DNA from: a virus
Length of the DNA: 64,000 bases
Strand: one strand, 5' to 3'
IMG/VR virus record: IMGVR_UViG_3300036893_000013
Coordinates: 48,038 to 112,037 of that record
This document shows positions 24,372-45,696 of this stretch, in pieces. The notes below the pieces were generated by a model. The model was given only the letters and a program-made list of their open reading frames with translations. It had not been told where the DNA came from and did not search any database. The position numbers and the translations under genes were made by a program. The number at the start of each line of letters is the position of its first letter. Position 1 is the stretch's first letter.

Positions 24372-24402
24372 TTTAATCCTTTAAACTTTTTTCTTAAAAA
24401 TA

Positions 24403-35521: not shown

Positions 35522-35597
35522 TGGCTCGCCCCGCTGGATTCGGACCAGCATCTCCAGAATTAACAGTTCTGTGCATTGCCAGTTATGCTAGAGGCAA
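35522..35597 (-). tRNA. tRNA-Asn(GTT), T-loop variant
   Basis: TTGCCTC TA GCAT AACTGGCA ATGC A CAGAA CTGTTAA TTCTG GAGAT GCTGG TCCGAAT CCAGC GGGGCGA G CCA; G73; C at position 55. Confidence 0.85.
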
Positions 35598-35634: not shown

Positions 35635-36237
35635 TTAGACGTTTTCGAACAAGAATTCCCTGATCGTTACCGTATTAGCAGCATTACCAGTACCAAAGAC
35701 AAAGGTAGGAATGAAGGTAAGATTAGTGACGGAGAGATTAGTGATCGCGGTAATAGCTACAGAACCAGTAAATACATTATTCACATCGGACTGGAACCAG
35801 CCGTTAAGGTGGCTGGAAGTGGAATCCCAAATGAGGTTATTCTCAAACAAGAAGTTAATGGTCGAAGCGGTGGTAATAGTGTACGAAGACGAAATAGACA
35901 CCAGAGTATCGCTCGTAGTAGTCGAACTAGTACCTTGATATAAACTAACTTGGAAAGTAGTCGAAGCTGATACAGTAACTAATCCAACAATACGAATACG
36001 GAACTGACGACCATCCACACTATCATTTACATAAGTGGGAGAACTAGCCTGAGGATTTGAAGACTGGTAGTTAGGGGCAACAGCGAGGTACAACCCAGCA
36101 CCCGCAGCAAACACAGGAGAGGGAAGACCTTGATAGAGGGCGGTAGCAGCAGGAACCAAAAGTGCGGTTGTAGTTGCGTTGGTAATATTCTGCGCTGGAA
36201 GTGAAACAAAACCGTTAGAACTATTTACATTAGCCAT
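35635..36237 (-). CDS. Putative capsid decoration/virion beta-protein (paralog of 22421-23113)
   Basis: GRQFRIRIVG, WDSTSSHLNG, TIREF. Confidence 0.55.
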   Translation of the reverse strand: MANVNSSNGFVSLPAQNITNATTTALLVPAATALYQGLPSPVFAAGAGLYLAVAPNYQSSNPQASSPTYVNDSVDGRQFRIRIVGLVTVSASTTFQVSLYQGTSSTTTSDTLVSISSSYTITTASTINFLFENNLIWDSTSSHLNGWFQSDVNNVFTGSVAITAITNLSVTNLTFIPTFVFGTGNAANTVTIREFLFENV

Positions 36238-36271
36238 GATAGACCTTTTTATTATGAGATGGGGCTTTTCA

Positions 36272-36765
36272 GGCCGGAGAAGGAGGGGTCACACGGTACC
36301 CCTCAGTTATGTACATACTCGCCAGCATTGCACTGGCATTGCGAAGACGGGAATTTATGACCGGCTAACAAAATCCTCCGGCTCACATAAAACTTATAAA
36401 ACTTATAAAACTTATAAAACTTATAAAACTTATAAAACTTATAAAACTTATAAAACTTAGAACACCGGGCGTTGAGCTTATGCTTGCCCGGTAATCTTAA
36501 GTCCGATTTGTACTCCCTCGGAACCGGGGCAGAAGGATTAAAATCCCTCAAATTCTAAACTTTTTAAACTTTAAACTTTAGCTAGTTTCTCTCACGGGAC
36601 TAGCGACCCTAGTGAACGGCAGGTAGCGACTGCGCGGAGCCTGTAGTTCTAAAAACTAGCGGTCACTGGTGCTCTCAGCTTTAAGCTACACCCGTCCACT
36701 TAAGGGCGGGAGAAGAGGCGCTAATCTCTTTATCCTTCAGTCGGGTCCGCTATCTTGTGCATCTA
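36272..36765 (-). ncRNA. Cluster of unknown structured RNA modules between tRNA-Pro and 36237
   Basis: Closing stems GCCGGAG/CTCCGGC (36273-36382), ACCGGGC/GCCCGGT (36464-36492), GCTAGTTT/AAACTAGC (36581-36660), TAGCGG/CCGCTA (36657-36752) with internal hairpins; no credible CDS. Confidence 0.6.
36387..36458. repeat. Perfect tandem repeat (ATAAAACTT)x8
   Basis: Read directly. Confidence 0.95.
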
Positions 36766-36769
36766 AACT

Positions 36770-36858
36770 TGGTCGGGGTAGGAGGACTCGAACCTCCAGT
36801 GCTCTTAAGCTCCTGTTTCCAAAACAGGTCGGCTACCATTTACCGATTTACACCCTCG
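36770..36858 (-). tRNA. Atypical tRNA-Pro(TGG) with long variable arm
   Basis: Anticodon arm CCTGT-TTTGGAA-ACAGG, T arm GGAGG-TTCGAGT-CCTCC, G72/A73/CCA; variable arm AGCTTAAGAGCACT; irregular 5' acceptor/linker. Confidence 0.7.
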
Positions 36859-36957
36859 GGGCGCGACTCCCGTTACGATAATAGCGTTTGCGGGTGGTGC
36901 CGGGTTGAACAGATTTTCCATCTAATTACTATTATACTCTCTTTTATCGAAAATTTA

Positions 36958-37836
36958 CTAACTTCTAAGTTTTTTTCTCTGTAGACACGCCAAATTTAGT
37001 ATGTATTGTTTAGATACCCCGTATTCTACTGACAATTGTAGCGAGTTTCTTCCCGTATATCTTCTGAAAATTTCCTCTCTGTTCTCTCTGGATATCTTGG
37101 AGTTGGGATGCCTATTTGATTTATGATAATAAAGCATGTTCTCAGCTACAGAAACCCACTCAAGATTTTCTACTGAGTTATTACTTTTATTACCATCCTT
37201 ATGATTAACACAAGATTTGTCTTCCGGGTTAGAAATAAAATGCTTTGCAACTAAACGATGAATAAAATGTGTTTTGACAATCCCATCTTTACTTAGGTTA
37301 ACTCTAGTATATCCATAGAAATCGGGTGGTGTTTGTAATAGATAGGCAATCCCTTTTCTTACTGATATAATCTCCCCTCTAATAGATATCTTATATCTTC
37401 CATACCCTTCTATATATTTCCACTCAGAGGATATATATTCATAATCATCCGAAAGTTTCGTGGACTTTTTAAGATTTGATGTCCTTTTTATCAGCCCAGT
37501 ATCTATAGCATGTTTCATGTTTTGAGACTGTGAACACCACTCTAAATTGTCTGATCTGTTATTTTTTACATCGCCGTCTAAGTGATTAACTATCCTATAA
37601 TTAAATGGATTAGGTTTAAAGGCTAAAGCCACTAATCTGTGAACTAGGCCGAACTTGGGTTTTCCTTGTATGAAAAGACTTAGTTGTATGTATCCTTGCT
37701 GACTTGTGGTATTTAAACTTAGTTCTTTACCTTGTTTACCTTTAATCTTACCAGAACTAGAGGCTTGGTATCCCTCATACCCCGGTATATCTCTCCACTC
37801 CTCCATTAATTTACTTTTCGAGTATTTTCGGGCCAA
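36958..37836 (-). CDS. Homing endonuclease with two NUMOD4-HNH units
   Basis: EWRDIPGYEGY..VHRLVA..VNHLDG..NN..NLEW, repeated twice. Confidence 0.9.
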   Translation of the reverse strand: MARKYSKSKLMEEWRDIPGYEGYQASSSGKIKGKQGKELSLNTTSQQGYIQLSLFIQGKPKFGLVHRLVALAFKPNPFNYRIVNHLDGDVKNNRSDNLEWCSQSQNMKHAIDTGLIKRTSNLKKSTKLSDDYEYISSEWKYIEGYGRYKISIRGEIISVRKGIAYLLQTPPDFYGYTRVNLSKDGIVKTHFIHRLVAKHFISNPEDKSCVNHKDGNKSNNSVENLEWVSVAENMLYYHKSNRHPNSKISRENREEIFRRYTGRNSLQLSVEYGVSKQYILNLACLQRKKLRS

Positions 37837-38804: not shown

Positions 38805-39236
38805 TTAGTTGTTTCCGTAGTTGTAATAATAAAGGCTTCCACAAGTACTACAGTTGTTTCCGTAGTTGTAATAATAAAGGCTTCCACAAGTACAGTAGTT
38901 TCCAGAACACCAACCGCAAGAGCAGGTAATATTTCCGGAGGAGGTAATATTTCCGGGAATACCAGAGAAAACACCCGGGAGGATATAAGATTTAGGAACA
39001 ATGAACTTATAATCTTCCGAAAACTGGTACCCAAACTCCCATCCCGATTTCTTTTCTATGTATTTATGTTGGATATAAGTATTCCAGTCGTCGGAAGCTT
39101 TTTGTGCTCTAACTAAATCATCATGTTTGTTTTTGCTGAGAACTTGATCCTGTGGGGATAGCTCTATTACTTTAGCCGTTTGAGCCGGAAGTATTGTACT
39201 CACCAGCAAAAATAGTATTTTTATCATTTTTGTCAT
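38805..39236 (-). CDS. Secreted protein with Cys/Tyr-rich duplicated C-terminus
   Basis: MIKILFLLVSTILPA|Q; TCGSLYYYNYGNN x2. Confidence 0.6.
   Translation of the reverse strand: MTKMIKILFLLVSTILPAQTAKVIELSPQDQVLSKNKHDDLVRAQKASDDWNTYIQHKYIEKKSGWEFGYQFSEDYKFIVPKSYILPGVFSGIPGNITSSGNITCSCGWCSGNYCTCGSLYYYNYGNNCSTCGSLYYYNYGNN
38807..38893. repeat. 42-bp perfect direct repeat, period 45
   Basis: 38807-38848 = 38852-38893. Confidence 0.9.
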
Positions 39237-45388: not shown

Positions 45389-45696
45389 CGGATCGGCGCG
45401 CAAAATTTTTTGCGTAGGGAAGGAGGTAGCATAAATGCCCAGACTTTAGCTTTTCTTGGCATTAGAAGCCAGAATGTTAATACTGCCCAAATCTTGAATC
45501 TCATTCAAGAAGCGCTGGGCGGGGGTGATCATTTTTCCTTCCACTCTGAATGAGCACCATCATTCTGATCGAGATAGGCGCAAGGCTGAGATGCCTGTCG
45601 CATTCGCCTAATCGCAGAGGACACGGGCGAACCTGCCCGTGAAATGCGGAGTACCCAAGGGTACGCGGTTCCAATCCCGCATGAAAAGAGGTTTTT

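Follow-up and report, generated by a model that had tools for sequence, protein, structure and literature searches.

The window analysed here is a stretch of 64,000 nucleotides (nt) from an uncultured virus, comprising bases 48038-112037 of a 112-kb record (IMGVR_UViG_3300036893_000013) that is about 98% complete. It contains a non-coding stretch bounded by a gene for an HNH/NUMOD4 homing endonuclease and by an open reading frame (ORF) for a protein of 200 amino acids (aa), with the terminase, SU10-type portal and capsid genes further downstream (Table 1). Since the genes around the locus are all on the minus strand, it is read here as the reverse complement, as was the AAGUUU motif in an earlier note on this DNA. 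That note described an array of unknown structured RNAs separated by AAGUUU linkers downstream of a tRNA. The array is present, downstream of a tRNA-Pro(UGG); what the note did not recognise is that the whole stretch, when its sequence is compared with those of related phages, reads as a depleted tRNA array on the minus strand that has kept its non-tRNA cassettes. We refer to these as units 1, 2 and 3, the last divided into 3a and 3b. The stretch holds no credible coding sequence, as the note had stated: the only longer minus-strand ORF of the stretch (36303-36551, 82 aa, TTG start) crosses a 9-bp tandem repeat that is not present in the relatives.

Table 1. Features of the non-coding stretch and of the two flanking genes, in window coordinates and in the order of transcription.
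Feature	Position	Strand	Remarks
HNH/NUMOD4 homing-endonuclease gene	36958-37836	-	PF13392 8e-19; PF07463 2e-14; phrog_59 4e-85; abuts the putative array promoter
Non-coding stretch	36238-36957	-	Between the homing-endonuclease gene (upstream) and the 200-aa ORF (downstream)
TATAAT box, putative -10 element of the array promoter	36931-36936	-	Conserved at array heads; predicted position
Conserved 5' leader before the tRNA	36859-36904	-	Aligns in 4 phages; ends in a hairpin of GGGG-N7-CCCC type
tRNA-Pro(UGG)	36770-36858 (ARAGORN 36770-36855)	-	14-nt class II-like variable arm; damaged 5' strand of acceptor
AAGUUU linker over the terminal A of the tRNA CCA	36765-36770	-	CCA-AGUUU
Unit 1, four-way-junction RNA	36657-36752	-	Homologs L002:2529-2619, L003:3305-3395
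Unit 2	36581-36643	-	Homologs L001:363-425, L003:3410-3471; 89-95% identity
Triple AAGUUU linker (AAAGUUUAAAGUUUAAAAAGUUU)	36557-36579	-	Motif starts at 36578, 36571 and 36562
Unit 3a	36502-36549	-	Homologs L003:3712-3757 (85% identity), L005:3806-3900
Unit 3b, GC-rich hairpin ACCGGGC...GCCCGGU	36464-36492	-	Window only; followed by U-rich sequence
Perfect tandem repeat (AAGUUUUAU) x 8.1	36387-36459	-	9-bp repeat; 100% matches in Tandem Repeats Finder; window phage only
Conserved 5' leader of the 200-aa gene	36238-36347	-	UCUUC, hairpin A, hairpin B, AAAGG ribosome-binding site, then ATG at 36237
200-aa beta-sandwich protein gene	35635-36237	-	AlphaFold model, predicted local distance difference test score 84

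The corresponding locus in related phages

Relatives were found through the 200-aa protein on IMG/VR and JGI contigs, the close ones at 72-84% identity. The window, L001, L002 and L003 are independent sequences (L004, L007, L009 and L013 being equal to L003), and L005 (equal to L014 and L024) and L015 are more distant. In these four to six related soil phages, the position of the locus is occupied by a tRNA array around the 200-aa gene, usually in the order Pro, Ala, CUA (amber) suppressor and Trp, then the 200-aa gene, then Gln and Asn. The Ala, suppressor, Trp and Gln tRNAs have been lost from the window, and ARAGORN identifies three tRNAs in the whole genome: the tRNA-Pro of the locus, Asn(GUU) at window 35522-35597 and Leu(UAA) at genome 6633-6715.

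When the units are compared with these loci by blastn, L001 proves to carry unit 2 only and L002 unit 1 only, and L003 has units 1, 2 and 3a (3a being the 5' half of unit 3). A diverged copy of the 5' half of unit 3 is found in L005. In every case the unit fills a slot between tRNAs, alone or in another combination or order. Judged by this cluster context, with the annotation of phage T4 as a reference, the units are non-tRNA RNA genes within a phage tRNA cluster and are co-oriented with its tRNAs. The modules, their independence of one another, their conservation and part of their pairing are observed directly.

As the units occur singly and in different orders, they are not one large RNA, which the earlier note had offered as a second possibility with GOLLD and ROOL in mind. 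The 520 nt do form a long non-coding, GC-rich stretch beside a phage tRNA, and the whole region folds better than shuffled sequences (z = -3.6), as might be expected of one large ornate RNA of that kind. However, such an RNA is extremely unlikely here, since the modules are separate, reordered and split by tRNAs and even by ORFs in the relatives, no long-range helix is conserved, and Rfam matches neither family. GOLLD and ROOL are likewise phage non-coding RNAs near tRNAs, but they are single RNAs of 500-800 nt (PMC12286853), whereas the modules here are separable and 48-96 nt long.

The cores of the units are 85-96% identical among the phages, compared to 57-89% for the orthologous tRNAs and 71-78% for the adjacent coding sequence. 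The strongest argument for a function of the units themselves is their conservation, which exceeds that of the neighbouring tRNAs and gene, together with their retention after the tRNAs had been lost. The alternative that they are functionless, decaying relics of tRNA genes accompanied by a microsatellite takes its support from the four lost tRNAs, from a 7-nt deletion in tRNA-Pro, and from the restriction of the 9-bp repeat and hairpin 3b to one phage. It is nonetheless decidedly unlikely, as the unit cores are conserved better than adjacent functional tRNAs, their changes lie in loops or are compensatory, and no tRNA model fits units 1-3. Rfam detects only tRNAs at the locus (the window at gathering cut-offs, 36150-37050 at E up to 10, and L003 at E up to 1), so that no family matches units 1-3, each of which the earlier note had proposed to compare with that database. 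Within 36150-37050 the only tRNA match at E up to 10 is tRNA-Pro, and this is also the only tRNA called there by ARAGORN in its standard, relaxed-with-introns and armless mitochondrial modes.

The tRNA-Pro itself is 92-95% identical to its copies in L001 (177-263) and L002 (1673-1758), in which the acceptor is a perfect 7-bp helix, CGGGGUG/CACCCCG. In the window copy, 7 nt are missing where the tRNA joins the leader, which results in two mismatches or a bulged A (36856) in the acceptor. The tRNA therefore may be crippled. Its Rfam score of 29.9 bits, against a gathering score of 29, covers model positions 10-63 only, a weak fit to the cloverleaf.

A set of 50,697 phage records gave no blastn match. 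When IMG/VR was scanned for exact patterns from the cores of units 1, 2 and 3a, only the same small clade was recovered, together with chance matches within coding sequence, and a covariance model of unit 2 gave no additional copies over 35 loci (323 kb). A terminase-based search for wider relatives reached phages at 49% identity, which have no tRNA array at the corresponding place.

Several other elements of the arrays deserve mention. Amber-suppressor tRNAs (anticodon CUA) are present at L002:2318-2392 and L003:3148-3222 and not in the window, whose ORFs are open under genetic-code table 11; thus, stop-codon recoding may differ within the clade. An odd tRNA with anticodon UUA and a C at position 33 lies in the same array in L015 (674-747). 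Further non-canonical cassettes include minihelix or tRNA-like elements ending in CCA and followed by AGUUU (L005:3520-3577 and L015:585-660), and an element at L003:3771-3878 with D-arm and T-arm sequences of tRNA type, complementary ends and about 50 extra nt in its middle. The latter was recognised by eye as a possible tRNA with an insertion, and is called neither by ARAGORN with introns allowed nor by Rfam. Two short Cys/Pro-rich ORFs with hydrophobic N-termini are found within the array of L001 (460-835), and an ORF of L015 (990-1590), with an HNH-like motif rich in Cys (identified by eye), lies between the leader hairpins and the 200-aa gene.

Structure of the units

Unit 1 consists of a closing helix and three hairpins, a (AAGAG/CUCUU), b (loop CUUAAGU) and c (GCU/AGC), joined by purine-rich junction strands. 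Its 67-nt core is 88-96% identical in three phages, and the substitutions are either in loops or compensatory. Hairpin a changes from AAGAG/CUCUU to CAGAG/CUCUG, replacing an A-U pair by C-G, and the innermost closing pair changes from C-G to A-U. The outer closing helices are unrelated in sequence, yet they pair in all three phages. The four-way junction is the minimum free energy (MFE) fold in L003 and lies within 2.3 kcal/mol of the MFE in the window; in L002 the MFE fold retains the closing helix and hairpins a and b and has a different third hairpin. The multibranch fold with three hairpins predicted in the earlier note is, thus, MFE or near-MFE in three phages and is accompanied by compensatory changes.

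In unit 2, a CAGG/CCUG helix surrounds a GCG/CGC hairpin. Its further elements are the conserved, single-stranded GCCGUUCACUAGGGU and a 3' helix (36604-36600 paired with 36585-36581) with an A-rich loop. The 3' helix is GCUAG/CUAGC, GCCAG/CUGGC and CCCAG/CUGGG in the three phages, a compensatory change in two of its five pairs. The other pairs are invariant, and 100% of the alignment cells are paired. Only the core of the longer unit drawn earlier at 36581-36660 is conserved, as its closing stem, CUAGUUU/AAACUAG, occurs in the window and not in the relatives. Similarly, the GUCGCUA said to be shared by two inner hairpins does have two copies in the window, of which the second is not conserved.

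Unit 3a begins with a 7-bp hairpin, followed by CCCC-GGU-UCCGA-GGG-AGUACAAA-UCGGA, which can form a helix and possibly an H-type pseudoknot. The hairpin shows one compensatory change in L003, from A-U to G-C, and is replaced by a different hairpin in L005. L005 also has a 34-nt insertion that falls exactly within the long loop and leaves both strands of the helix intact. Among the local folds, unit 3b has the greatest stability (-15.9 kcal/mol, z = -3.3). Blastn found no homolog of it in the relatives, and the terminator scan did not call it as a terminator. Of the single unit outlined previously at 36464-36553, then, the 5' part (36549-36502) is conserved and the hairpin at 36492-36464 is specific to the window.

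The candidate H-type pseudoknots of units 2 and 3a have a 3-bp and a 5-bp stem and an A-rich loop, with every alignment cell paired. Two pairs covary in the 5-bp stem of unit 2. The 3-bp GGG:CCC stems are invariant in both units, and for this reason the pseudoknots are unproven. The earlier note had made its reading depend on conserved or covarying stems; compensatory changes are found in helices of units 1, 2 and 3a and of leader hairpin A (see below). The support for units 1, 2 and 3a is comparative rather than thermodynamic.

We considered whether one or more of the units could be self-cleaving ribozymes that process the tRNA precursor, in the manner of the theta ribozymes related to that of hepatitis delta virus (HDV). 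Theta ribozymes lie within 5 nt of phage tRNA ends, often beside suppressor tRNAs (PMC10879173). They resemble the units in being small structured RNAs in phage tRNA arrays of lineages that carry suppressor tRNAs, as the relatives do, and the window itself contains a match to the self-cleaving twister-P5 ribozyme (45613-45680, plus strand; Rfam score 43.7 bits, gathering score 37.6, over the full length of the model). However, the nested double pseudoknot of HDV-like ribozymes, built of P1-P2-P3-P1.1(-P4) with a catalytic C in J4/2, cannot be threaded onto units 1-3, and unit 1 begins 17 nt past the tRNA CCA in the window rather than at the tRNA end. A scan of 36200-36960 (minus strand) with an HDV-like descriptor, cruder than the published one, matched only the AU tandem repeat, and Rfam gave no HDV match at E up to 10. 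The twister, twister-sister, pistol, hatchet, hammerhead and hairpin ribozymes likewise had no cmscan match with permissive filters at E up to 10. A ribozyme identity is, on this evidence, very unlikely.

The predicted transcript, its leaders and its linkers

In the window, L001, L002 and L003 alike, a TATAAT box followed by RGTA precedes the conserved leader at a similar distance. It has the extended form TGnTATAAT in the three relatives and is not extended in the window, where the predicted transcript start is near 36923. A consensus scan of the minus strand gave no full sigma-70 site. The last hairpin of the leader preceding the tRNA is present in all four aligned phages, without covariation. 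Two tandem repeats, one of 45 bp (about 2 copies, 38807-38903) and one of 18 bp (38920-38956), lie at the edge of, and partly inside, a minus-strand ORF (38805-39236) that is located upstream of the endonuclease gene.

At the other end of the array, the last 110 nt ahead of the ATG of the 200-aa gene align in L001 to L004. Hairpin A of this leader (36337-36321, loop UGCAAUG) has a conserved loop, YGCAAYG, and compensatory changes in three of its five pairs across six phages, a score reached by none of 500 shuffles. Hairpin B (36304-36283) differs in sequence and keeps its pairing in every phage. Both hairpins had been assigned in the earlier note to a free RNA unit at 36273-36382; they are real and covarying, but most of the region belongs to the conserved leader of the 200-aa gene, and its predicted long closing stem has no partner in the relatives. 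The order of UCUUC, hairpin A and hairpin B is also found in L085, whose protein is only 39% identical, after an array of 13 tRNAs.

The 200-aa protein has 70 homologs, roughly 45 of them closer ones, and matches no Pfam or PHROG family; a scan of GTDB genomes with its profile found nothing. Its AlphaFold model shows weak fold matches to lectin-like domains and to the C-terminal domains of phage fibres and spikes. Large tRNA arrays precede homologs of 28-39% identity in L085 (1-2500), where 13 tRNAs end about 100 nt ahead of the gene, and in L088 (1-550), where 6 tRNAs end about 2 kb upstream. The pairing of this gene with tRNA arrays is therefore old.

The conserved leader raises the possibility that units 1-3, instead of being free RNAs, also act in cis, as part of a long 5' untranslated region controlling the stability or translation of the 200-aa gene mRNA. 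The modules are upstream of, and co-directional with, the same gene in every relative, and the proximal 110 nt are clearly a leader. Even so, this role is unlikely for the units. In the relatives, canonical tRNAs stand between the units and the gene; these must be excised, so the units would be severed from the mRNA. Additionally, the presence of a unit is independent of the gene.

AAGUUU stands at most unit boundaries, as described in the earlier note: after the tRNA CCA, in the triple linker and eight times in the 9-bp repeat (starts 36458...36395), all on the minus strand. It is also found after the capsid gene, at 24388. In total, 12 copies of AAGTTT lie on the minus strand between 36395 and 36770. 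The copies inside each tandem array are not independent and the set was therefore counted as 3 sites, compared to about 0.4 expected per 700 nt from the 38 copies in the remaining 63 kb or so of the minus strand. In the relatives, CCA-AGUUU follows tRNA-Trp in L001, tRNA-Ala and tRNA-Trp in L002, and the tRNA at 3224-3292 in L003, which with the window makes five occurrences after CCA ends; AAGUUU also lies 3' of the ends of units 1 and 2 in L003. The 9-bp repeat, which is not present at the same position in L001-L003, may be an expansion of the linker motif by slippage.

The consensus of RNase E is RN|WUU (PMC5222698), and in Escherichia coli tRNA operons this enzyme cuts 1-3 nt past each CCA (PMC2190699). 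AAGUUU contains the RNase E core as A-G|U-U-U, with U at +2, and lies between predicted helices. Because of this match, and because RNase E cuts after CCA, we infer that the AAGUUU linkers are processing sites for an enzyme of this type. In being AU-rich and single-stranded after CCA, the linkers resemble the spacers that RNase E processes in bacterial tRNA operons, among them the leuZ 3' external transcribed spacer sponge, and those spacers demonstrate that a tRNA precursor can yield functional RNAs other than tRNAs (PMC2190699, PMC5222698). They differ in that the bacterial spacers are unstructured and belong to host operons, and in that cleavage of the phage linkers is predicted.

Being a short repeat at the borders of cassettes, the motif could also have a part in recombination. 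In the stronger form of this idea, AAGTTT acts mainly on the DNA level, as a recombination or target site for the shuffling of tRNA-sized cassettes, possibly aided by a homing endonuclease. (A)AGTTT is found on both sides of modules, the modules are shuffled among the relatives, and the motif has expanded by slippage in the window. Moreover, an HNH endonuclease gene abuts the array here and another interrupts it in L015. We regard a mainly DNA-level role as quite improbable, since the motif directly follows the CCA of ordinary tRNAs, where the textbook interpretation would be RNA processing (PMC2190699). The two roles are compatible with each other.

Taken together, the stretch is probably the front of a minus-strand unit resembling a tRNA operon, the transcript of which would be cut at AAGUUU to release small stable RNAs and a hairpin-headed mRNA. 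One transcript would start behind the conserved TATAAT box and comprise, in order, the leader, the partly damaged tRNA-Pro, units 1, 2 and 3a, the phage-specific hairpin and microsatellite, and the mRNA of the 200-aa structural-type protein, with a further tRNA (Asn) after the gene. RNase P would cut at the 5' end of the tRNA, and a host enzyme of RNase E type would cut the single-stranded, AU-rich linkers at A-G|U-U-U. Cutting would leave the folded modules to build up as small stable RNAs and would give the 200-aa gene an mRNA headed by protective hairpins. The polycistronic non-coding RNA cassette cut at AU-rich linkers that the earlier note envisaged fits these observations as a cassette, with tRNAs between the modules, a shared TATAAT box and AAGUUU at the ends; its cutting stays a prediction.

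Several points weigh against this interpretation. Transcription of the unit, cleavage of its linkers and stability of the released RNAs are all deduced from DNA sequence, and the presence of RNase E is assumed. Other tRNAs in the relatives do not have AAGUUU after CCA, and other AU-rich runs are found there. The folding energies of the single units are ordinary (z = -0.9, +0.7 and -0.7 for units 1, 2 and 3a, respectively). Each unit is represented by only three independent sequences, which keeps the covariation counts small; the covariation score of unit 2 is reached by 59 of 500 shuffles, most helices never vary, and covariation is absent from the 3-bp stems of both pseudoknots and from the pseudoknot stems of unit 3a. 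Finally, part of the high identity of the units could stem from a recent exchange of cassettes and not from selection.

Affinities and possible roles of the units

Small stable RNAs of unexplained function have been known in phage tRNA clusters for fifty years, the examples being species 1 and 2 of T4. The annotated record of the T4 tRNA cluster lists two "small, stable RNA" genes, rnaC (species 1, 139 nt) and rnaD (species 2, 119 nt), and the homing-endonuclease gene segB among the tRNAs. Like units 1-3, these are non-tRNA RNAs in a phage tRNA cluster, co-oriented with the tRNAs, and a homing-endonuclease gene in or beside the cluster is common to T4 and the window phage. The endonucleases differ in type, SegB being a GIY-YIG enzyme and that of the window HNH/NUMOD4. 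The RNAs are not significantly similar in sequence (a best local match of 9 nt, equalled in 30 of 300 shuffles), the covariance model of unit 2 has no match in the T4 locus, and rnaD ends in CCA, which units 1-3 do not. By analogy, we regard the units as three uncatalogued, tRNA-sized folded RNAs that are probably of the same kind as the small stable RNAs of the T4 cluster, although unrelated to them in sequence.

The tRNA-like structures of plant viruses (turnip yellow mosaic virus type) have pseudoknotted acceptor arms. Units 2 and 3a are similar in that each ends in a possible H-type pseudoknot within a tRNA slot. However, they have neither a 3' CCA nor a conserved tail, and their pseudoknots contain invariant stems.

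An antisense function was also considered. The phage genome contains 175 complementary 10-mers, against about 146 expected, the longest match being 14 nt, which is nothing beyond chance.

Our working guess is that units 1-3 bind a protein that normally handles tRNA. The loop of hairpin b in unit 1, CUUAAGU, shares six of its seven bases with the anticodon loop of the phage tRNA-Leu(UAA), CUUAAGA, and CUUAAGA recurs twice in predicted exposed parts of the transcript. It is a tentative and unlikely idea that unit 1 is a tRNA-shaped RNA without a T-arm, and that the set of modules serves as a decoy or sponge for a factor that reads the anticodon loop of tRNA-Leu, such as an anticodon nuclease or a modification enzyme. 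If so, the set would have been retained even after the loss of most of the real tRNAs. The broader suggestion in the earlier note of decoys for host defence is pure speculation. In all, three copies of the palindrome CUUAAG(A/U) lie within 310 nt, each in a predicted loop or linker (CTTAAG starting at 36804, 36699 and 36496); the genome-wide rate of CTTAAG is 44 per 112 kb, and the observation was made post hoc and is a lead rather than a result.

The instance described here is small, extending over four to six genomes. Within it, the units are more tightly conserved than the tRNAs around them and are kept where most of those tRNAs have been lost, which argues that they act independently of decoding. 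Their binding partners could bear on how phages handle host defences directed at tRNA, or on RNA processing.

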